A stretch of 64,000 nucleotides of DNA from Escherichia phage phiEc_1: the sequence record LC768462.1, one strand, 5' to 3'. How positions within the stretch are numbered: the stretch's first letter is position 1; each line of letters starts with the position of its first letter. Made by a program: the position numbers and the translations under genes. The notes beneath the pieces are model-generated. The model did no database searches. It had not been told where the DNA came from and saw only the letters and a program-made list of their open reading frames with translations. Shown here piece by piece: positions 12,310-28,448 of this stretch.

Positions 12310-12337
12310 TTGACAGCCTTTTCCTTTATTATATAGT
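12310..12337 (+). promoter_or_regulatory. sigma70-type early promoter
   Basis: TTGACA-16 nt-TATAGT with A-rich upstream, 45 nt before first early ORF. Confidence 0.65.
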
Positions 12338-14641: not shown

Positions 14642-14670
14642 TTGACACCGGAAAAAGCCTGATATATAGT
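14642..14670 (+). promoter_or_regulatory. strong sigma70 promoter
   Basis: TTGACA-17 nt-TATAGT, A-rich UP-like element upstream. Confidence 0.7.
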
Positions 14671-15274: not shown

Positions 15275-15303
15275 TTGACAGCGAAAACAACATGATTCAT
15301 AAT
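15275..15303 (+). promoter_or_regulatory. strong sigma70 promoter
   Basis: TTGACA-17 nt-CATAAT, A-rich upstream. Confidence 0.7.
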
Positions 15304-17126: not shown

Positions 17127-17150
17127 GTAAGACAATTTAAATAAACATAA

Positions 17151-18587: not shown

Positions 18588-18613
18588 ATGTCTACTGTAT
18601 AGGAATCTATGAA

Positions 18614-19348
18614 ATGAAAGCAATTGTATTATCCTCAATCCTAGCTCTGTCCGTAATGGCATCGCCTGTTTTTGCTAAAAGTGGAAACAATGGCAATGGC
18701 AATGGAGGTTGTGGTGTAGGTCAATCTACCAATGGTTGCGGTATCGGAGATTGGTTTAAAGGTGAAAAAGGTGATCAGGGAGAGAAAGGCGACACTGGCG
18801 CTAATGGCATTGATGGTAAAGATGGCATTGATGGTAAAGATGGCATTGATGGTAAAGATGGCATTGATGGTAAAGATGGCATTGATGGAGAACAAGGCGC
18901 TCAAGGTGAAAAAGGTGATTCTGGTGCAGATGGTAAGAAAGGCGAAACTGGCCTAACTGGTGCAGCAGGTTTGAATGGCGTTGACGGATTAAATGGCAAA
19001 AACGGTAAAGATGCAGATATGTCTGCCGTTAATGCTAACGCCAAATCCATCAAAGCTCTGGAACAATCCACCAATAAACGTTTTGCTTCTTTGCAAAAAC
19101 AAGTAGACCGTAACCGTGATCATGCCTCTGCTGGTATTTCTGGCGTGGCTGCAATGGCTAACATCCCGCAAGTAAGTCAAGGATCTGCTTTCTCTGTTGG
19201 TGCTGGGGTAGGTGCTTACGATGGTGAATCTGCTCTTGCTATTGGTGTTAGTGCTCGTTTCAATGAAAACTTAGTAACTAAAGCATCAGTGGCAATGACT
19301 TCAGAGAGTGACGCTGTTCTGGGCGCTGGTGTAAGTTACGAGTGGTAA
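18614..19348 (+). CDS. secreted collagen-repeat protein with YadA-like C-terminal anchor (trimeric-autotransporter-like)
   Basis: signal peptide MKAIVLSSILALSVMASPVFA; Gly-X-Y repeats; C-terminal anchor-like region ending VSYEW. Confidence 0.65.
   Translation: MKAIVLSSILALSVMASPVFAKSGNNGNGNGGCGVGQSTNGCGIGDWFKGEKGDQGEKGDTGANGIDGKDGIDGKDGIDGKDGIDGKDGIDGEQGAQGEKGDSGADGKKGETGLTGAAGLNGVDGLNGKNGKDADMSAVNANAKSIKALEQSTNKRFASLQKQVDRNRDHASAGISGVAAMANIPQVSQGSAFSVGAGVGAYDGESALAIGVSARFNENLVTKASVAMTSESDAVLGAGVSYEW
18806..18877. repeat. 18-bp perfect tandem repeat x4 (GGCATTGATGGTAAAGAT), encodes GIDGKD
   Basis: read directly; fifth diverged unit follows. Confidence 0.9.
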
Positions 19349-19458: not shown

Positions 19459-19848
19459 ATGTTGACATTGACTATTTATTATGAGGCAGGGAATCAGCCA
19501 ACCGCATGTAAGGCTTTAGTTGCGGATACCGTGATAAATAGAATGGCCCAACGAAAACTGACCGCTGAACAGGTGATAAGACAGAAGAACCAGTTTGAGT
19601 GGATTCCGGTACTATTAAAACAGGAGAAACCTTATAAACGTTATGTAAAGCTGATTCGTGATAAAAATCCGATGACTAAGCAAGCCATTGGAGAAAGCGA
19701 GCGACTTGCTAAACGTGCCCTTAAGAAGAATTATGTTCCGCTGTACAGTGGGACTTACTTTCAGAGTAAGAGCGAAGGGGTGCCAAAATGGTATGCCAAT
19801 CCTATGTATTGTGGTGATTTAGTGTTCGATAATAGCTCTAGGGAATAA
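19459..19848 (+). CDS. SleB/CwlJ-like cell wall hydrolase domain protein
   Basis: YYEAGNQP..VADTVINRM..QFEW motifs; weak SD so start uncertain. Confidence 0.5.
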   Translation: MLTLTIYYEAGNQPTACKALVADTVINRMAQRKLTAEQVIRQKNQFEWIPVLLKQEKPYKRYVKLIRDKNPMTKQAIGESERLAKRALKKNYVPLYSGTYFQSKSEGVPKWYANPMYCGDLVFDNSSRE

Positions 19849-20048: not shown

Positions 20049-20345
20049 ATGACTTTAGAAGTATATAAATTCCTTTTTGTAAGCTGTTTAACTATCAGCG
20101 TTATAGGATTTATTGTTCTCAGAAACAAAGCAGCAAGCTGGGAAAGAATGTATAAATCCCTAGTTCGAGTGGATGAGATGTATAATGAGAAAGTTAAAGT
20201 AACACTCAACGATCTTATTATGCAAGTTGAAGACAGAAATAAGCGTCTTCAGAACCTCAACCATGAAGTATTACGACTTGCTCGTGCTAATGAAGACTTA
20301 CGAGTGGCTATTGCTAAGCAGCAGGAGATTAACAGTGAAAGTTAA
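20049..20345 (+). CDS. membrane-anchored coiled-coil protein
   Basis: N-terminal hydrophobic segment then heptad-like region. Confidence 0.5.
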   Translation: MTLEVYKFLFVSCLTISVIGFIVLRNKAASWERMYKSLVRVDEMYNEKVKVTLNDLIMQVEDRNKRLQNLNHEVLRLARANEDLRVAIAKQQEINSES

Positions 20346-20571
20346 TATTAAATCCGATCGTACAATGCTTCGCTTAAATAACATGAAGCCGGGCGTTCTA
20401 TTTGAGCGTAAAGACTCTCTTTATATTAGAACCGACACACTATACGCAGATAACTATGTGAACTGTGTTGATGTGGTAACTGGAAAGCTCATGCCTTTTA
20501 AACGGGATGAAGTCTGCCAAGTACGTAGTGATCTTCACATAACCAACATAGAGGCTAAAGATGAAGATTGA
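20335..20571 (+). CDS. small paralog family member 1
   Basis: GTG start with AGGAG SD; shares MK..L..G.VF...V.L..G pattern with 7 other ORFs. Confidence 0.5.
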   Translation: MKVNIKSDRTMLRLNNMKPGVLFERKDSLYIRTDTLYADNYVNCVDVVTGKLMPFKRDEVCQVRSDLHITNIEAKDED

Positions 20572-20812
20572 TCTTGAGATGAAAGCTAAAGAATTGTGTG
20601 TGGGTGATTTGAAACTTGGTGATGTATTCCAAGTTAAGGCAACATGTATTGATTATTACATGATCGTTCAGTTATATACACCACATGTGTCAGAGACTGA
20701 TCTTCGGAATGGTTGTGTAGTGCTCAGTTTAAGCACCAATCAAGTAATGAAGCTAGATTCAAACTTACCTGTTTCAGTTATCCATGATGCAGTAATTACC
20801 AATCGGAAGTGA
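20561..20812 (+). CDS. small paralog family member 2
   Basis: paralog pattern (LKLGDVFQV...). Confidence 0.55.
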   Translation: MKIDLEMKAKELCVGDLKLGDVFQVKATCIDYYMIVQLYTPHVSETDLRNGCVVLSLSTNQVMKLDSNLPVSVIHDAVITNRK

Positions 20813-20814
20813 AT

Positions 20815-21027
20815 ATGAACATTGAAAAGAAGGTTGTTGACGAGGCTGTTCAGTTACGATCTCTTGAAACACATGATGTATTTGTGTGGGGAGGCAGTCT
20901 GTTTCAGAAATCTGCTTATGCTGTAGAGGGCGGGGTTCGTTGTTTTAATATCTTCAACAATGAGATGCAAATCCTTCCTAACTTCGCTCATGTTAATAAA
21001 CTTATCCACCTTTCTATATATCAATAA
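20815..21027 (+). CDS. small paralog family member 3
   Basis: paralog pattern (LETHDVFVW...). Confidence 0.5.
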   Translation: MNIEKKVVDEAVQLRSLETHDVFVWGGSLFQKSAYAVEGGVRCFNIFNNEMQILPNFAHVNKLIHLSIYQ

Positions 21028-21037
21028 GGGCAATTAG

Positions 21038-21256
21038 ATGGAAATTAAAGTAGTTGATTATCCTAAATATGCAAATGCAGAGGACGTTAAAGGTGGTGAT
21101 GTTTTCTCTTATGATAAACGTTTCTGGCTGATGCTAGAAGATAAAACCCCTGATGGTTTGTGTAAGGCTGCTAACTTGAGCAGTGGTTCTGTTGAAGTCT
21201 TCGGTCTATCAACCACTGTTATGCCACGACCTGATCTGTGTTTATCCCAAAAGTAA
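21038..21256 (+). CDS. small paralog family member 4
   Basis: paralog pattern (VKGGDVFSY...). Confidence 0.55.
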   Translation: MEIKVVDYPKYANAEDVKGGDVFSYDKRFWLMLEDKTPDGLCKAANLSSGSVEVFGLSTTVMPRPDLCLSQK

Positions 21257-21614
21257 CACCGACTTATAGCCCTTGTGTTTATCAGAGGGCTATGTGAGGG
21301 TGTTCCTCATTAACTTATTAATTCAGGCATATGCCACACCGCTAGGGAGAGCTTGCTCGAACATCCGGTGTTAGACTAAAACCTGTTAATTTTCGAAAGA
21401 CTTTCCGATATGTAGGGGTACGTATTGGTTTGGGATTCAGGAGACTTCCTAGGGGTAGGGAGTCTTCACCAGTTGGAATAAGAGATAGCTCTAGAACCTG
21501 AACTCTTAGGCAGAGAAGGTCGGCAATGAGTACGCGGTCAGGGTTAGTCTACTGACTAGGGCTATCCCTTATATCAACTGGCAATAATGCCTCCACTAAC
21601 AAAGAGAGATAGGT

Positions 21615-21755
21615 ATGAAAGTATCAACCAAACGTATGAACCGCCCTGAACGTATGGATGCAGTAGCTAATGGTGCTCTGAAACTGGAAGGCTTTTGGAT
21701 TCATGCAATGTCAGCCATCCGTAACAAGCAAGGTAATTGGACGTATAACAGTTAA
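21615..21755 (+). CDS. small hypothetical protein (46 aa)
   Basis: short ORF followed directly by a terminator. Confidence 0.35.
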   Translation: MKVSTKRMNRPERMDAVANGALKLEGFWIHAMSAIRNKQGNWTYNS

Positions 21756-21763
21756 TAAATAAA

Positions 21764-21794
21764 AGGCTGCCTTCGGGTGGCCTTTGTTGTTTTA
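21764..21794 (+). terminator. intrinsic terminator
   Basis: GGCUGCC-UUCG-GGUGGCC + U-rich tail. Confidence 0.6.
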
Positions 21795-21836
21795 ATTAAG
21801 GGACAACTCTTACTTAAACTAACAAGAGGTGCTTAT

Positions 21837-22190
21837 ATGAGACGCATGGTTAAAGATTGGGTCACTAAATCAGGTCTTCGTGCTGTGATTATGCACATGA
21901 ACGACTCCCATTTTTGTGGATATGTAGAGCTACCAGACAGCTTAAAACATAAAAACTTCACCGGATATAACGGAAAGGAAGAGGTTTGTTATGTAAGTGT
22001 TCATGGTGGTGTCACATGGCAAGACACCCTTGAAGAGATGGGTGGTTTAGATACAATCGGATTTGATTGTGCCCATGCAGGTGATAAGACACGGTTCAAC
22101 CCTAACGGGATACCAAGAACAGAAGAGTTCTGCGTTAATGAATGCGAACAATTGGCTGAACAACTAAGAGATCTAGAATCAAATGTCTAA
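21837..22190 (+). CDS. hypothetical protein
   Basis: ATG with AAGAGGTG SD; 117 aa. Confidence 0.55.
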   Translation: MRRMVKDWVTKSGLRAVIMHMNDSHFCGYVELPDSLKHKNFTGYNGKEEVCYVSVHGGVTWQDTLEEMGGLDTIGFDCAHAGDKTRFNPNGIPRTEEFCVNECEQLAEQLRDLESNV

Positions 22191-22359
22191 GCAAATAATC
22201 AAACATACGCAAGCTGGTTACTCTTATGTCAACTCTCCTTGCTGCGGTGCTCGTATTAGTCTGGTTAAGGAAGAGGTTCGTATTGTTCAGCGTGGCGCTA
22301 CTGTTGTTCGTTCATGCTGTGTCTGTGGTAATGACATTTTTATCAAAGGTAAAGTATGA
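22183..22359 (+). CDS. small Cys-rich protein
   Basis: 58 aa with CC..//..CCVC; start/stop overlaps with both neighbours. Confidence 0.4.
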   Translation: MSKQIIKHTQAGYSYVNSPCCGARISLVKEEVRIVQRGATVVRSCCVCGNDIFIKGKV

Positions 22360-22607
22360 AAAACTTCCAAGCTGCACCAATCACTAAAGTGATCGAAGTT
22401 GATGGTATAATGATGACTGTTCCTCTGAACACTCGTTACATTGCAATTGACAAGATGGGTTATGTATGGGCTTGGAAGATCAAGCCTAGTTATAACGCAT
22501 TGTTTGATGAGTTTGTTTGTACTGGAACTTACAGTCCCACATTCTTAGGTTTATTTGGAGAATTTGATGGTAAGCATAAAATCATCACACTCCCTGCTTG
22601 TGCTTGA
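22356..22607 (+). CDS. hypothetical protein (paralog of next gene)
   Basis: 83 aa; similar to 22615-22848. Confidence 0.5.
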   Translation: MKNFQAAPITKVIEVDGIMMTVPLNTRYIAIDKMGYVWAWKIKPSYNALFDEFVCTGTYSPTFLGLFGEFDGKHKIITLPACA

Positions 22608-22614
22608 GGTTAAT

Positions 22615-22848
22615 ATGAAAGGAAAAGAGGTTAAATATTTTGGCGAAGTTGTTAAAGTGGACAGCTCTATAAGATATTTAGCAACTGATAGCAACGGCGA
22701 GGTATATGGGTTTACCCATAAGCCAGAAATTCGTGGGTATGCTTGGGCACTTCCTTATGGGACTCCGTTCGAGACGGGAGGAGCTGTTTATCTTAACGAT
22801 AATGGACCTCTGTTTGCATGGAAAACATCTCTCGTTGAGGTGGTGTAA
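22615..22848 (+). CDS. hypothetical protein (paralog of previous gene)
   Basis: 78 aa. Confidence 0.5.
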   Translation: MKGKEVKYFGEVVKVDSSIRYLATDSNGEVYGFTHKPEIRGYAWALPYGTPFETGGAVYLNDNGPLFAWKTSLVEVV

Positions 22849-23022
22849 TTATGTTCAAGTGGTTTAAACGTCTATTCCATCTGCATGATTGGGAGACAAT
22901 AAAAGAAATTCGTTTACACATATATAATGAGATCGGTCAAATAGAAGACACAGGTACTCGTTATATACTTCGATGTAAAACATGTGGTCATATCACCAAA
23001 CGAGATATGATCTAAATCTTAT

Positions 23023-23095
23023 GCGCTCTTAGCTCAATGGATAGAGCAGTAGCCTTCTAAGCTATTGGTTACAGGTTCGAGTCCTGTAGGGCGCA
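23023..23095 (+). tRNA. tRNA-Arg (anticodon UCU); CCA encoded at 23096-23098
   Basis: hand-folded cloverleaf: 7-bp acceptor stem, D-arm, anticodon loop CU-UCU-AA, T-arm ACAGG-TTCGAGT-CCTGT. Confidence 0.9.
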
Positions 23096-23117
23096 CCAAA
23101 TCTAATAGGAGGTAATT

Positions 23118-23417
23118 ATGAGTTGGGGTGGTGTAATATCCTTAATCTGTATCTTCCTTGTCTGCATAGCCCTTACAGGCTGCGTACAGAGCCGTCCTGA
23201 TGGATGGTGTGCAGTAGCAGTGGAAGGTGTTTGTGTTTCTCGCTGGCATAAGGGTGAGAAGATTCCTTCTGGTGAAATTGATATGCGATGGAACGGAGCA
23301 ACCTGTTCTAATGCTAACCCTTCTATCAACGAAGAGAAGTCTACACCGGATAATGTTGTTATTGATACAGCATTGTGGTGTGGTGGCTCTACGATTACAA
23401 CCGGTAAGGAGTGGTGA
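23118..23417 (+). CDS. lipoprotein
   Basis: signal peptide with lipobox LTGC. Confidence 0.6.
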   Translation: MSWGGVISLICIFLVCIALTGCVQSRPDGWCAVAVEGVCVSRWHKGEKIPSGEIDMRWNGATCSNANPSINEEKSTPDNVVIDTALWCGGSTITTGKEW

Positions 23418-23418
23418 T

Positions 23419-23616
23419 ATGAATTACACATCTACAAAGGTGTTAATTGATTCGATTAATAACTCCTCAGAAACTGTACAGGAGCGTTTAATACAAGATG
23501 TTAGCAATGACATTAAGTTCTTTGTTAAGAGCCGCCTGTTAGGTTCTAAGGCTTATTACAGAGCTAAAGCAGAGCTTACAAAGAGGATGTTTCTTTTACA
23601 TGGTTTGGTATATTAA
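23419..23616 (+). CDS. hypothetical protein
   Basis: ATG with AAGGAG SD 7 nt upstream. Confidence 0.45.
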   Translation: MNYTSTKVLIDSINNSSETVQERLIQDVSNDIKFFVKSRLLGSKAYYRAKAELTKRMFLLHGLVY

Positions 23617-23625
23617 GGAACTTAT

Positions 23626-23847
23626 ATGAAACTAGACTCTAAGCAGTCACTTAAAACTGTTGAATTGTCCACGCTGCCAAACGGAAGTATTTTTGGTCAT
23701 GATAAACACTTCTGGATTAAAACAGACATCATAGACGATGGATATATCACCTGTGTCAATCTTTGGAACGGCTCAGTGGATGGCTATCGCCCTAGTGCAA
23801 AAGTAGTCCCTCAGCCTGATGCAAAGGCTACAGGTTTAGTTTACTAA
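23626..23847 (+). CDS. small paralog family member 5
   Basis: paralog pattern (LPNGSIFGH...). Confidence 0.5.
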   Translation: MKLDSKQSLKTVELSTLPNGSIFGHDKHFWIKTDIIDDGYITCVNLWNGSVDGYRPSAKVVPQPDAKATGLVY

Positions 23848-23856
23848 GGAGCCTGT

Positions 23857-24030
23857 ATGAGTTGTTTTGGTGGCGGTGAAGTAGATGACGATGATGACAT
23901 GGAATCCAACGGTACATGTCCTGATTGTGGATGTGAGACGTTTGATGGGGTGTCTGTTTATCCTGCCTGTAGTTACTCACCAGTGATCTGTAAAACATGT
24001 GGTGATCAGCCGTGTGACCAATCTTGTTAA
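23857..24030 (+). CDS. small acidic Cys-rich protein
   Basis: 57 aa, 9 Cys. Confidence 0.35.
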   Translation: MSCFGGGEVDDDDDMESNGTCPDCGCETFDGVSVYPACSYSPVICKTCGDQPCDQSC

Positions 24031-24182
24031 GAGAATCTTATGACTGAAGAATTTTTAGAGTGGTTTGGGAACACCTTCAAAGATTATCTATTCTCTCCAG
24101 AAGACTTTGAAGAACTGAAAACCTACACTTGGTTGGCTTGGAGAGATAGCCGACGAAAGTTGAACAAGTAAGAGACGATTAA

Positions 24183-24440
24183 ATGGGTTTACTTGATATT
24201 TTTATCTCAGTTTACTTTATTGGAGTATTCCTTTCTGTCTTAGTGATGAAACTGCTATACAAGAAAGGTCTACTAAAAGGGGTCATTACAACAGGGTCTA
24301 CCAGCTCTGAACCTGATGAGATGATGGTTGTTCTCTTAATTGTGTTGTGGCCTATCTCAATACTGTCAGGAGTTTTTTATCCAATAGGTTGGCTTCTGTT
24401 TAAAGCATATGATGCAGTTATGCATTTTATCTTTAAGTAA
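24183..24440 (+). CDS. small membrane protein
   Basis: 2-3 hydrophobic helices. Confidence 0.5.
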   Translation: MGLLDIFISVYFIGVFLSVLVMKLLYKKGLLKGVITTGSTSSEPDEMMVVLLIVLWPISILSGVFYPIGWLLFKAYDAVMHFIFK

Positions 24441-24730
24441 TATCGTGAAGGATTCTTACGAGAGTCCTTTGAGATAGGACTTCAGATCTCCTATCAAACT
24501 AACATTCATGTAACTAGCCCATAAGGGCGTTACCCTTTAATAACCCAGCCCACTAAGGGGGCGGGAGTTTAGTGCTGGATTAGCATAACGCTTATTCCTA
24601 CAAAGGCAACCGATTGTTAGATCTTACATGCAATATTAACTAATAGGATAAGGGAGGATTCGTCCCCTCCCCCTATTTTATTGAATCTTTATCTAAGCAA
24701 GTCTTATATAAACGTTTAATTGGAGGATGT

Positions 24731-25042
24731 ATGAAAGCACGAAGAACTATATGGACTCCGATGCAGATTGAAAATCTTCGGAGACTGATCAAAGAGTACT
24801 CGGTTCAAGAAGTTGCTCAGATTATGAATGTAACGGAGAATGCTGTTAACACAGCTTGCACTAAATTCGGAATATCAAGAGCTTCAATCCGAGTCAAGTG
24901 GTCTAAAGAAGAAGATCAGTTCCTTATCCGTAATGCCGGGTTTATGTCTATTCAGAGAATGGCTGACATGCTTGGTAGAAGTTATGCTGCTGTACAGAAC
25001 AGGGCATGTATGCACCTTAATATTAGCCTCAAACTTAAATAG
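24731..25042 (+). CDS. putative DNA-binding protein with tandem HTH-like repeats
   Basis: two ~45-aa repeats resembling sigma region-4 / Myb-like HTH. Confidence 0.45.
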   Translation: MKARRTIWTPMQIENLRRLIKEYSVQEVAQIMNVTENAVNTACTKFGISRASIRVKWSKEEDQFLIRNAGFMSIQRMADMLGRSYAAVQNRACMHLNISLKLK

Positions 25043-25050
25043 GAATCAAT

Positions 25051-25299
25051 ATGAAGATTACTCACAAGAAAGAAGAAGTGTCCACGGTTGATATCAACTC
25101 TCTTCCTAGTGGAGCAGTATTTAAATTCCCTGAGAGTTCTACTCTCTATGTCAAAGGGTCTGTGTCTGAAAGTCCTAATGTAACCGTTAACTCCGATCGA
25201 GCAATCACTCTTCGTCTATCTGATGGTAACGTAACAGCCCCTTCTATCTGGTGCCGAGTTGTCCCTGTATCGGCAGAACTTTTGGTGGATAATACATAA
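25051..25299 (+). CDS. small paralog family member 6
   Basis: paralog pattern (LPSGAVFKF...). Confidence 0.5.
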   Translation: MKITHKKEEVSTVDINSLPSGAVFKFPESSTLYVKGSVSESPNVTVNSDRAITLRLSDGNVTAPSIWCRVVPVSAELLVDNT

Positions 25300-25544
25300 T
25301 GAAAATCATCCCAAAGAAAAAGGATAATACGGTTCGATTGGAAACAATCATTCCCGGAAACCCCTTCGTAGTTCAGCACGGAAGTGCCTCTCCTCAGTAT
25401 TATATGAGGGTTGAAAATGCTTCTGGTAACATCCGTATAGCCAGTGGCTGGGTTCCTGTAGTAAATCTATCCACAGGTGCACTGTCTGTTAAAGGTCTTG
25501 ATGATCAGGTAGAAATGATTCGTATGTCTGTGGTTCAGGAGTGA
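25299..25544 (+). CDS. small paralog family member 7
   Basis: paralog pattern (IPGNPFVVQ...). Confidence 0.5.
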   Translation: MKIIPKKKDNTVRLETIIPGNPFVVQHGSASPQYYMRVENASGNIRIASGWVPVVNLSTGALSVKGLDDQVEMIRMSVVQE

Positions 25545-25792
25545 GAATGAGCACGATACATATTAAGGTTCACAACAAAGAAAAAAAGAAACTCTTTGTT
25601 AAAGATCTGTCAACCGCTGACATCTTTACTTTAAAAGATGATGACAGTCAGGTCATTTATTTGATGATGCCTCTATCTGGTGGATATCGCAGAGCAGTTA
25701 ATTTAGGTACAGGCGAACCTCGTCCTGTTTCTGACACTCTTGAAGTTGGCGAGAAGTTTGCCAAAGCAGAGATCATCTTAACTCCGATGTAA
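25541..25792 (+). CDS. small paralog family member 8
   Basis: paralog pattern (LSTADIFTL...). Confidence 0.5.
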   Translation: MRMSTIHIKVHNKEKKKLFVKDLSTADIFTLKDDDSQVIYLMMPLSGGYRRAVNLGTGEPRPVSDTLEVGEKFAKAEIILTPM

Positions 25793-27238: not shown

Positions 27239-28438
27239 ATGTTTCCAGTAACATTAGAAGATACTGAAGGTAATGTTTTAACAGTCAACCCTCCTTGTTA
27301 TGGGTTCCTTCAGCTTCGCAACTATAACGGTGGCGTTGATGAAGACGATGAAGAGTATGATGACTACTTCGACCCTAACATGTATGAGGCAACTCATGGA
27401 TGGAATATGCACGTTCGAGTGTGGCATGAAGAAGCTAACGTTCGTAGTGCTGATGGGGAAGAGTTCCTGTTAAGCCGAGAGATGGATATGTGTAAAATCA
27501 AGCATATCTGGAACTCTGGAACTCATATGAAGATGTTAGGTTTTAGACGTTGGCGTGATGAAAAGCATGTAGCTGAAGCTTTAAGTTGGTGTTCGTATGA
27601 AGATGAAGACACGCCCCCTAAGAACAACATCGAACGTTGGAACGACAAAAACCCTGAGCATCGAACCACACCTCGTGCTGTACTGGAAGCTATGGAAGCA
27701 TTTGTGGACAAAGATCGTCCCTCCTGTTTACGCTGGCACGATAAAGGTTTTATGGGGGTAGCAACTGAGAATATCCCTGCTGATCGTTGTCTGTTCTATT
27801 TGATGTTAGACCGAATCTTCTATTGTGAAGATGAAGAGAGTCAAGTTGAAACCTTCCTCCATAAATGGTTGGTTGAAGGCTGGACAATCCTTCAGGCTTA
27901 TGTTTACTCACGAATGGTTAGCACTTACACTAACCTCTTAGGGGAAACGAAAGCAACTCTGGTTGGTAATGATTGGGATGCTTGTATCTTCCCAGCGTCG
28001 CTGTTTACAGTTGGCATGGCTAATAAATACGCTGAAGCATTTCAAGTGCCTTGGCGTCAACAGTCATATAGAGATGGATGCGGTCATTTCCGTGATGAAG
28101 ACTTTAAGTGGATTCATTACGAGAATGATGAAACAGCAGAATTACGAGTTAACAACTCAATGTTCTTGCCAGTGATGCACCCCGATCTAGTAAAAGACGG
28201 GTCAGAGACACTTAAAGGTGATAATCTTTTGGTTAACTTTACCCGTCGCGTGTCTAAAAATGAGAAAACAGCTAACAGGTTAATCTACGGCATTCGTGCC
28301 GAGGCTAAAGACCTGTTCAACATCTACAACATCATTCAGCGATTTAGTAGTGGAACTCTGGACCAAAGTTCGGAGTATTCAGTGATTCCGTCCTCTGAGT
28401 GGGATGGTATTATGAGCGGATTATTTTTAGGAAAATAA
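27239..28438 (+). CDS. hypothetical protein, first gene of ligase/amidotransferase cluster
   Basis: 399 aa, acidic, no recognisable motif. Confidence 0.6.
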   Translation: MFPVTLEDTEGNVLTVNPPCYGFLQLRNYNGGVDEDDEEYDDYFDPNMYEATHGWNMHVRVWHEEANVRSADGEEFLLSREMDMCKIKHIWNSGTHMKMLGFRRWRDEKHVAEALSWCSYEDEDTPPKNNIERWNDKNPEHRTTPRAVLEAMEAFVDKDRPSCLRWHDKGFMGVATENIPADRCLFYLMLDRIFYCEDEESQVETFLHKWLVEGWTILQAYVYSRMVSTYTNLLGETKATLVGNDWDACIFPASLFTVGMANKYAEAFQVPWRQQSYRDGCGHFRDEDFKWIHYENDETAELRVNNSMFLPVMHPDLVKDGSETLKGDNLLVNFTRRVSKNEKTANRLIYGIRAEAKDLFNIYNIIQRFSSGTLDQSSEYSVIPSSEWDGIMSGLFLGK

Positions 28439-28448
28439 AAGGTTAGTT

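Follow-up and report, generated by a model that had tools for sequence, protein, structure and literature searches.

Several small phage proteins made early in infection are known to bind a single host protein each, among them gp79 of phiEco32, gp8 of N4, gp70.1 of PaP3 and gp4 (Mip) of LUZ24. The target of N4 gp8 is the clamp loader. The other three act on RNA polymerase/sigma (phiEco32 gp79), RpoS (PaP3 gp70.1) and MvaT (LUZ24 gp4) (PMC12276001, PMC5035744, PMC4635203). Each of these inhibitors is encoded by a single gene, whereas the same genomic niche in Escherichia phage phiEc_1 holds a multigene family. Here we describe this family in a 64,000-nucleotide stretch of the phiEc_1 genome (LC768462.1), the whole of which we refer to as the window. 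It comprises eight open reading frames (ORFs) between positions 20335 and 25792, which a previous sequence-only reading had singled out as diversified relatives of one another.

The closest counterparts in well-known phages are N4 gp21, LUZ24 gp7 and PaP3 ORF.65, homologous single-domain proteins of 74-79 amino acids (aa) that match the family profile at E values of 1e-9 to 8e-20 and family structures in BFVD at template-modelling (TM) scores of 0.71-0.77. LUZ24 gp7 and PaP3 ORF.65 lie in early regions, as the window genes do; N4 gp21 is presumably a middle gene, since it is found downstream of the RNAPII genes. All three are single-copy in their phages, in contrast to the eight copies in the window. 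A multigene family of small early accessory proteins built on a common fold is in itself a familiar kind of thing. What is new is the unification of these proteins, which already stand in the databases as hypothetical, into one SH3-like superfamily, together with its size and its expansion in the Gordonclarkvirinae; in the literature that we searched, we found no description of them as a family.

Results

Eight small ORFs belong to one paralogous family

All eight ORFs are present on the plus strand at the positions given by the sequence-only reading and encode proteins of 70-83 aa. We refer to them by number or by the start position originally assigned:

Member 1, 20335..20571, + strand: 78 aa, GTG start; subfamily SF4, orthologue of phi32_115, own PHROG 16423
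Member 2, 20561..20812, + strand: 83 aa; SF5, orthologue of phi32_114, own PHROG 9955; 11-nucleotide (nt) overlap with member 1
Member 3, 20815..21027, + strand: 70 aa; sporadic subfamily SF9, own PHROG 33163
Member 4, 21038..21256, + strand: 72 aa; SF6, orthologue of phi32_113, PHROG 6570
Member 5, 23626..23847, + strand: 73 aa; SF1, orthologue of phi32_104, PHROG 6570
Member 6, 25051..25299, + strand: 82 aa; SF7, orthologue of phi32_97, PHROG 7832; directly 3' of a helix-turn-helix (HTH) regulator gene at 24731-25042
Member 7, 25299..25544, + strand: 81 aa; SF2, orthologue of phi32_96, PHROG 7431; universal in Gordonclarkvirinae
Member 8, 25547..25792, + strand: 81 aa from ATG 25547; SF3, orthologue of phi32_95, PHROG 12612; universal in Gordonclarkvirinae

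The window contains 394 six-frame ORFs that are 40 aa or longer. Compared with all of these in phmmer, single sequences gave significant links only inside a four-member core formed by 20335, 21038, 23626 and 25051 (E = 5e-9 for 21038 versus 23626, 1.4e-4 for 20335 versus 23626 and 9e-4 for 23626 versus 25051). The members outside this core appeared as top but non-significant matches, and most pairwise identities among the eight are 17-30%. A profile of the four core members recruited 25299 (1e-5), 20561 (1.5e-3) and 20815 (9e-3), and the next round added 25541 (2e-3), after which no other ORF of the window fell below E 0.01 in the iterative search. A weak profile match at 36353-36817 proved to be a gamma-glutamyl cyclotransferase homologue and was set aside as spurious.

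The PHROG database led to the same grouping. Each member matches one PHROG over its full length (E 1e-27 to 1e-53), and the cross-matches form one connected graph that holds all eight: phrog_6570 ties 20335, 20815, 21038, 23626 and 25051 together, 7431 ties 20335 to 25299, 8365 ties 25299 to 20561, and 12612 ties 20561 to 25541. Member by member, the cross-matches run to PHROGs 6570, 7832 and 7431 for member 1, to 8365 and 12612 for member 2, and to 6570 (2.5e-3) for member 3. PHROGs 6570, 7832, 16423, 7431, 9955, 33163, 12612 and 8365 thus hold the same proteins, are all labelled 'unknown function' and are kept as separate families; intermediate metagenomic proteins such as P0129 match eight of these PHROGs simultaneously. 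In addition, a 94-sequence external profile, none of whose sequences had a BLASTP match of >=35% identity over >=40 residues to any window member, found all eight at E 1.3e-17 to 1.9e-9 (9.8e-13 for member 2, 1.9e-9 for member 3 and 2.3e-14 for member 7), with the next window ORF at 4.5e-3. Since the external set had been retrieved with a profile of the eight, this comparison is partly circular; the PHROG evidence is not. Neither the profile search nor tblastn with members of the subfamilies missing from the window revealed a ninth copy or remnant in it, so that the profile, PHROG, external-profile and tblastn results set the number of family copies in the window at exactly eight. On these relationships we conclude that the eight ORFs are ancient paralogues of one small soluble domain of ~70-83 aa; the proposal that they form one diversified paralogous family is borne out by the iterative profile, the PHROG graph and the external profile.

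The sequence signals around and within the ORFs indicate that they are real protein-coding genes. Purine-rich motifs resembling Shine-Dalgarno sites precede each of the eight starts, for example an AGGAG 7 nt 5' of the GTG of member 1, and several family genes overlap their neighbours by 1-11 nt, a pattern typical of translational coupling; the start of member 7 overlaps the stop codon of member 6 by one base (TAATG). For member 8 the start had been placed at GTG 25541. As an AGGAG lies 5 nt 5' of ATG 25547, and GTG 25541 overlaps the TGA stop of member 7, the ATG is more probably the start. With orthologues from nine other genomes, the ratio of non-synonymous to synonymous substitution (dN/dS, Nei-Gojobori) was 0.04-0.36 for each window member having diverged orthologues (0.05-0.17 for member 1, 0.09-0.25 for member 2, 0.05-0.16 for member 4 and 0.07-0.36 for member 6). 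Family genes are conserved in >70 phage records.

A predicted SH3-like barrel with a conserved core

In the family alignment, numbered as in member 5, conservation falls on M1, I3, two hydrophobic positions ahead of G20, D21, V22, the invariant F23, (Y/F)30, K32, T33, V44-N45-L46, G49, F54 and V60; two glycine positions are conserved at 94-95%. They correspond to M-K-I at the N-terminus, two turns (G-(D)-V-F and V-N-L-x-T-G) with the strand (Y/F)-(M/I)-K-T between them, and a single F and V in the last strands, with H-D-V-F in member 3 and A-D-I-F in member 8 in place of G-D-V-F. The motif originally proposed is therefore essentially right as MK(I/V), L..L..G(D)VF and V(N)L.(T)G followed by V, while its final 'V.P' is found in only about half of the family. 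From their pattern, we read the conserved columns mostly as the barrel core plus two tight turns. The paralogues differ at the other strand positions and in the loops, including an insertion of variable length between strands 2 and 3.

Structure models cover members 5 and 8. The AlphaFold2 model of member 5, from an 84-sequence alignment, has five strands, with a predicted local distance difference test (pLDDT) score of 82 and a predicted TM-score (pTM) of 0.67. That of member 8, the most divergent of the eight, has a pLDDT of 86 and a pTM of 0.74, the same strand order and paired N- and C-terminal strands. The two models share their structural neighbours. Alignment and structure prediction thus both agree with the proposed kinship, the similarity being significant at the profile level and the fold common to the two modelled members.

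The family models resemble Tudor, KOW and classical SH3 domains in fold, and the closest known folds are SH3-like small β-barrels, namely the uL2 C-terminal domain, EF-P domain I, KOW, Tudor, the DtxR/IdeR C-terminal domain, FeoA and the VapX antitoxin. At the sequence level, the Tudor, KOW and SH3 models of Pfam were not matched by any window member at E <= 1, and the broad family profile matched no PDB sequence at E <= 1. None of the eight had a Pfam match below E 0.1, distant members were likewise without a Pfam match, and 21038, 23626, 25299 and 25541 had no NCBIfam match below E 0.01, all matches being far under the curated cut-offs. The Pfam, NCBIfam, PHROG and PDB searches gave no named relative of the family, and no search was aimed at anti-defence proteins. 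Foldseek searches of BFVD matched only uncharacterised phage proteins (TM 0.7-0.9), including N4 Gp21 and PaP3 ORF.65 and others from T4-like, N4-like and further phages of Proteus, Klebsiella, Yersinia, Erwinia, Vibrio, Serratia, Aeromonas and Morganella. The well-supported prediction from the models is that the family domain is a five-stranded SH3/Tudor-like small β-barrel, of a class no more specific than SH3-like. The net charge of the window members is near neutral (-2.5 to +1.7), and 132 family representatives have a median isoelectric point (pI) of 5.0, with 89% below pI 7.

Copies are gained and lost among Gordonclarkvirinae

By megablast, the window segment 20000-26000 matches 144 phage records, mostly ~77-kb Escherichia phages, including Ec3-ASingh (98% identity, 96% coverage) and vB_EcoP_DE5 and SkaterBoy (Bas90) (97% identity, 92% coverage). 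The annotated relatives (phiEco32, NJ01, WFI101126, YF01 and others) are all Gordonclarkvirinae/Kuravirus, and downstream of the family the window carries an amidoligase, glutamine amidotransferase, COOH-NH2 ligase and RimK-like block, as is typical of phiEco32. The annotation of the relatives and this amidoligase gene block indicate that the window phage is a phiEco32-like (Kuravirus) coliphage and not an N4/G7C-like virus. A search of ten Gordonclarkvirinae genomes with the family profile gave the following copy numbers:

Window phage: 8 copies
Bas90: 10 copies
phiEco32: 9 copies (gp95-98, 104, 109, 113-115)
NJ01: 10 copies
WFI101126: 8 copies, one truncated
XT18: 9 copies, one truncated
YF01: 7 copies
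Ptacy1479: 10 copies
EP335: 11 copies
LAMP (68.5 kb): 3 copies

Clustering at 45% identity divided the copies in these ten genomes into 14 subfamilies. The 23626, 25299 and 25541 types are universal; of the remaining subfamilies, four are near-universal and seven sporadic. The window's 20815 type is one of the sporadic ones (SF9) and occurs, among the ten, only in the window, Bas90 and NJ01; the member 5 type was found in every Gordonclarkvirinae genome sampled. Some subfamilies exist as two allelic types, ~57-70% identical, that do not track overall genome similarity, and Bas90, ~97% identical to the window elsewhere, has the other allele of member 8. Bas90, WFI101126 and Ptacy1479 also have an additional family member between the HTH regulator gene and the gene-6 orthologue.

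Shortened copies of 56 and 61 aa, without the second half of the domain, are found in WFI101126 (L010 7120-7290), whose member 6 copy is shortened, and in XT18 (L011 6841-7026). They look like pseudogenised members, which points to ongoing gene death. Salmonella phage PKM.Hi.22.6, from a different family (Grimontviridae; L015 1746-7671), has six members, and the 71% identity of one of these to member 5 suggests that family genes are exchanged horizontally between phages of different families. Within the window, the copies had been described as tandem, a term that is only partly apt: they stand in three groups of four, one and three genes, and the two most similar paralogues, 21038 and 23626 (identity ~30-40%), lie apart from each other. 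We take this last point to mean that the family is old and recombination-shuffled rather than the product of recent tandem duplication. Overall, these comparisons indicate that copies are gained, lost, truncated and swapped among related phages.

The wider family exceeds a thousand sequence clusters

We searched 1.84 billion cluster representatives (clusters at 50% identity) exhaustively with HMMER and obtained 1092 family proteins at E <= 1e-3. A word-indexed protein search brought up nothing beyond close orthologues. Among the best 150 of the 1092, nearly all are 65-86 aa long and align end to end, and a few have two domains. Distant single-domain members always lie within arrays of small unknown ORFs in phage contigs, one of which is T4-like. 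The window and one distant locus had hinted at a general association of the family with genes for sigma factors or HTH proteins, but this failed in five other contexts. A profile search found no family member within the first 30 kb of phage G7C.

The domain of the window members, with its motifs L-x-x-G-D-x-F and N-L-x-T-G, also occurs in a small number of larger proteins, but there as tandem repeats within one polypeptide. One is a SprT-like metalloprotease (P0122; Tenacibaculum metagenome-assembled genome, L008 3583-5019), in which five very basic copies follow the protease domain (pI 9.7). As these repeats are strongly basic, the domain probably has a different role here, such as DNA or substrate tethering. 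The giant phage proteins P0132 and P0165 have many copies; the lengths of the giant proteins are 1920 and 2667 aa, and the longer one, without a Pfam domain, is encoded on a 123-kb phage-like contig (L017 10001-18004). Three further large matches, P0123, P0128 (a repeat protein, dismissed on its sequence alone) and P0142 (Big_5 repeats), look spurious.

The PaP3/LUZ24-type Pseudomonas podoviruses share with phiEco32-like phages an enzyme block and also the family, of which they have a single copy upstream. In PaP3 (L018 32292-37655), as at ~28400-36800 of the window, this block comprises an amidoligase, a class-II glutamine amidotransferase, a COOH-NH2 ligase, a RimK-like ATP-grasp protein and a gamma-glutamyl cyclotransferase.

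The family lies in the early cluster

In phiEco32, experiments placed the right-end cluster in the early class, and the assignment has been extended to SU10 and YF01 (PMC8948821, PMC4281155, PMC9965538). By orthology and synteny, seven of the eight window members correspond to genes of this cluster (phi32_95-97, 104 and 113-115). Upstream of the family the window has three strong matches to a sigma-70-type promoter:

12310..12337, + strand: sigma-70-type promoter match (11/12) at the start of the early cluster, which would drive early transcription
14642..14670, + strand: sigma-70-type promoter match (11/12) in a long non-coding spacer, with a putative promoter role
15275..15303, + strand: sigma-70-type promoter match (11/12) in the same spacer as the 14642 match, with a putative promoter role

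These positions agree with the promoter layout published for SU10 and phiEco32 (PMC4281155). The motif of the phage sigma factor (gp36), TAATGTATA, has no exact plus-strand occurrence between 12000 and 46374. The early-region location proposed for the family is thus upheld by its synteny with the phiEco32 early cluster and by the sigma-70-type promoters upstream, which place the family genes in an early cluster apparently transcribed by host RNA polymerase; early expression of the window genes themselves is what we infer from this arrangement.

Neighbouring genes

The genes around and between the three family groups have features of their own. Directly 5' of family genes 6-8, the ORF at 24731-25042 (+) encodes a 103-aa protein with two HTH-like halves, a Sigma70_r4_2 match (E 1.6e-7) and a Myb-like match; it is labelled 'D5-like transcriptional regulator' in relatives. 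Between the first family group and member 5, the early cluster holds a tRNA-Arg (anticodon TCT; 23023-23098, +), after which comes a small lipoprotein gene (23118-23417; lipobox LTGC). Three small Cys-rich ORFs stand among the family genes (22183-22359, 22851-23015 and 23857-24030, all +; 58, 54 and 57 aa), with paired CxxC-type motifs that give them a zinc-ribbon look. The ORFs at 22356-22607 and 22612-22848 (+) may be a second pair of small paralogues without kinship to the main family (31% BLASTP identity across 35 aa, with E 2e-4 for this one comparison); in phiEco32, NJ01 and XT18 a family member of the phi32_109 type takes their slot.

Upstream of the family, the product of 18611-19348 (+) combines a hydrophobic N-terminus, five GIDGKD collagen triple-helix repeats (PF01391, E 8.8e-17) and a YadA-like outer-membrane anchor (PF03895, E 2.5e-19), and so resembles a phage-encoded trimeric-autotransporter-like protein; in the annotation of relatives it is a 'tail protein' (phi32_119). 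The ORF at 19459-19848 (+), also in the early region, matches the SleB-type cell wall hydrolase family (PF07486, E 1.7e-7), and this is an unusual site for a wall hydrolase.

Discussion

Our data point to an old family of small barrel proteins, and the reading of its function that we favour, with a rough probability of 0.45, is that its members are non-toxic, accessory protein-binding modules on one scaffold that serve host modulation or counter-defence. Through the common barrel, each paralogue would engage a macromolecular partner of its own in the early phase of infection, with a host protein as the likeliest candidate. The paralogues would modulate host physiology or host defence without being lethal, each of them dispensable by itself, and would be neither general shut-off toxins nor nucleic-acid binders. 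We take the members to be dispensable and accessory because the copy number ranges from 3 (LAMP) to 11 (EP335), only 3 of the 14 subfamilies are universal, and truncated copies occur. Protein binding is favoured over nucleic-acid binding because the single-domain members are acidic to neutral. The dispensable copies, the acidic-neutral proteins, the conserved core with variable loops and the early accessory niche together disfavour both a toxin and a nucleic-acid role. LUZ24 gp7 (77 aa), which scores 38 bits with the external profile and is a clear family member, was included when 13 early LUZ24 proteins were expressed in P. aeruginosa, and growth was inhibited only by gp4, gp6, gp9 and gp11 (PMC4635203, Table S2). 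These four gave no family-profile match, and we reject them as family members. The Gordonclarkvirinae have been reported to show a remarkable resistance to restriction-modification and other defence systems, by a mechanism that is not known (PMC11990801), which leaves room, on circumstantial grounds, for a counter-defence role of the family.

Several points weigh against this interpretation. No partner, phenotype or structure is available for any family member. The targeting of host defence or metabolic proteins is a suggestion of the sequence-only reading, and the sole tested homologue, LUZ24 gp7, was non-inhibitory. The SH3-like fold is generic and in other families also serves nucleic-acid binding and oligomerisation, and the basic tandem copies in the SprT-like protease suggest DNA binding by the domain in another context. 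The pairwise whole-gene dN/dS is well below 1 and so gives no hint that orthologues of one group are engaged in an arms race. Terminator-like hairpins at 17149, 18562, 21762 and 24652 stand between the early promoters and the family, which is why the expression of the window genes is a matter of inference.

A role as small nucleic-acid-binding barrels (Tudor, KOW or Sm-type), acting on phage or host DNA or RNA to modulate transcription or translation or to shield phage DNA, would fit the fold neighbours, which include uL2, EF-P, KOW and PWWP domains, as well as the five very basic repeats behind the SprT-like protease domain, whose relatives work on DNA. The third gene group also follows the HTH/sigma-region-4-like regulator gene, and one distant pair follows a sigma factor gene, but this adjacency is not general, and with single-domain members mostly acidic and those of the window near neutral we consider such a role unlikely. 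Host shut-off toxins that inhibit essential host machinery, in the manner of N4 gp8 or T7 Gp2, would be at home among the small early proteins of a 'host takeover' cluster (PMC8948821). Against this stand the screen in which LUZ24 gp7 did not inhibit growth (PMC4635203), the three copies that suffice for LAMP, and the family profile, which matched neither phiEco32 gp79 nor N4 gp8 nor PaP3 gp70.1 and so leaves these inhibitors outside the family; we regard the toxin explanation as highly unlikely.

The paralogues could instead assemble as homo- or hetero-oligomers into one multi-subunit early complex, as many small β-barrels do. The existence of natural proteins in which 2, 5 or many copies are fused in tandem and the translational coupling of the genes are in keeping with this, as is the two-domain protein P0145, whose C-terminal half best matches the 25541 type (5e-7) and whose N-terminal half weakly matches the 25299 type, an order that mirrors the adjacent universal genes. 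The N-terminal match is weak (4e-3), though, and a correspondence of adjacent 25299 and 25541 to a natural two-domain fusion is accordingly put forward as a weakly supported suggestion. Copy sets that vary freely between phages, with most subfamilies dispensable, are unexpected for subunits of one complex, and in many phages, such as N4 and LUZ24, the family is single-copy; a common complex thus appears distinctly unlikely. EF-P domain I, one of the fold neighbours, is itself a target of amino-acid ligation. This, and the joint presence of the family and the enzyme block in phiEco32-like phages and the PaP3/LUZ24 group, could be taken to mean that the members are substrates or adaptors of the downstream amidoligase/ATP-grasp/glutamine-amidotransferase peptide ligases, an idea whose chances we rate as slim: members are also present in the part of N4 that was read, in a contig of T4-like type and in further phage contigs where no ligase-block genes were seen in the flanks, and the C-termini are not conserved between paralogues. 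As for similarity by chance or composition, or non-coding ORFs, the low pairwise identities and the several pairs that are individually non-significant could be cited in support, but the agreement of profile, PHROG and external profile, the common fold in two models, purifying selection and the presence in >70 phage records effectively refute it.

The reading as accessory protein-binding modules can be taken a step further. Since the Gordonclarkvirinae reportedly resist most tested defence systems for unexplained reasons (PMC11990801), the family is a concrete candidate set for this resistance, and natural copy-number variants exist, from LAMP with 3 to EP335 with 11. In its boldest form, which we consider unlikely, the proposal is that an arsenal of at least 14 subfamilies, with 3-11 copies per genome and each neutralising a different host defence or factor, is a main reason for the defence resistance of the Gordonclarkvirinae. 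If this were true, the wider family of >1000 clusters would rank as a major class of counter-defence modules in phages that has so far gone unrecognised.

The family makes up ~6-9% of the genes in a common, therapeutically used coliphage group, and belongs to a superfamily of >1000 sequence clusters without a Pfam entry or a solved structure. One SH3-like domain in place of scattered 'hypothetical proteins' and at least eight PHROGs gives a single experimental handle for many phages, including N4, LUZ24/PaP3 and T4-like phages.

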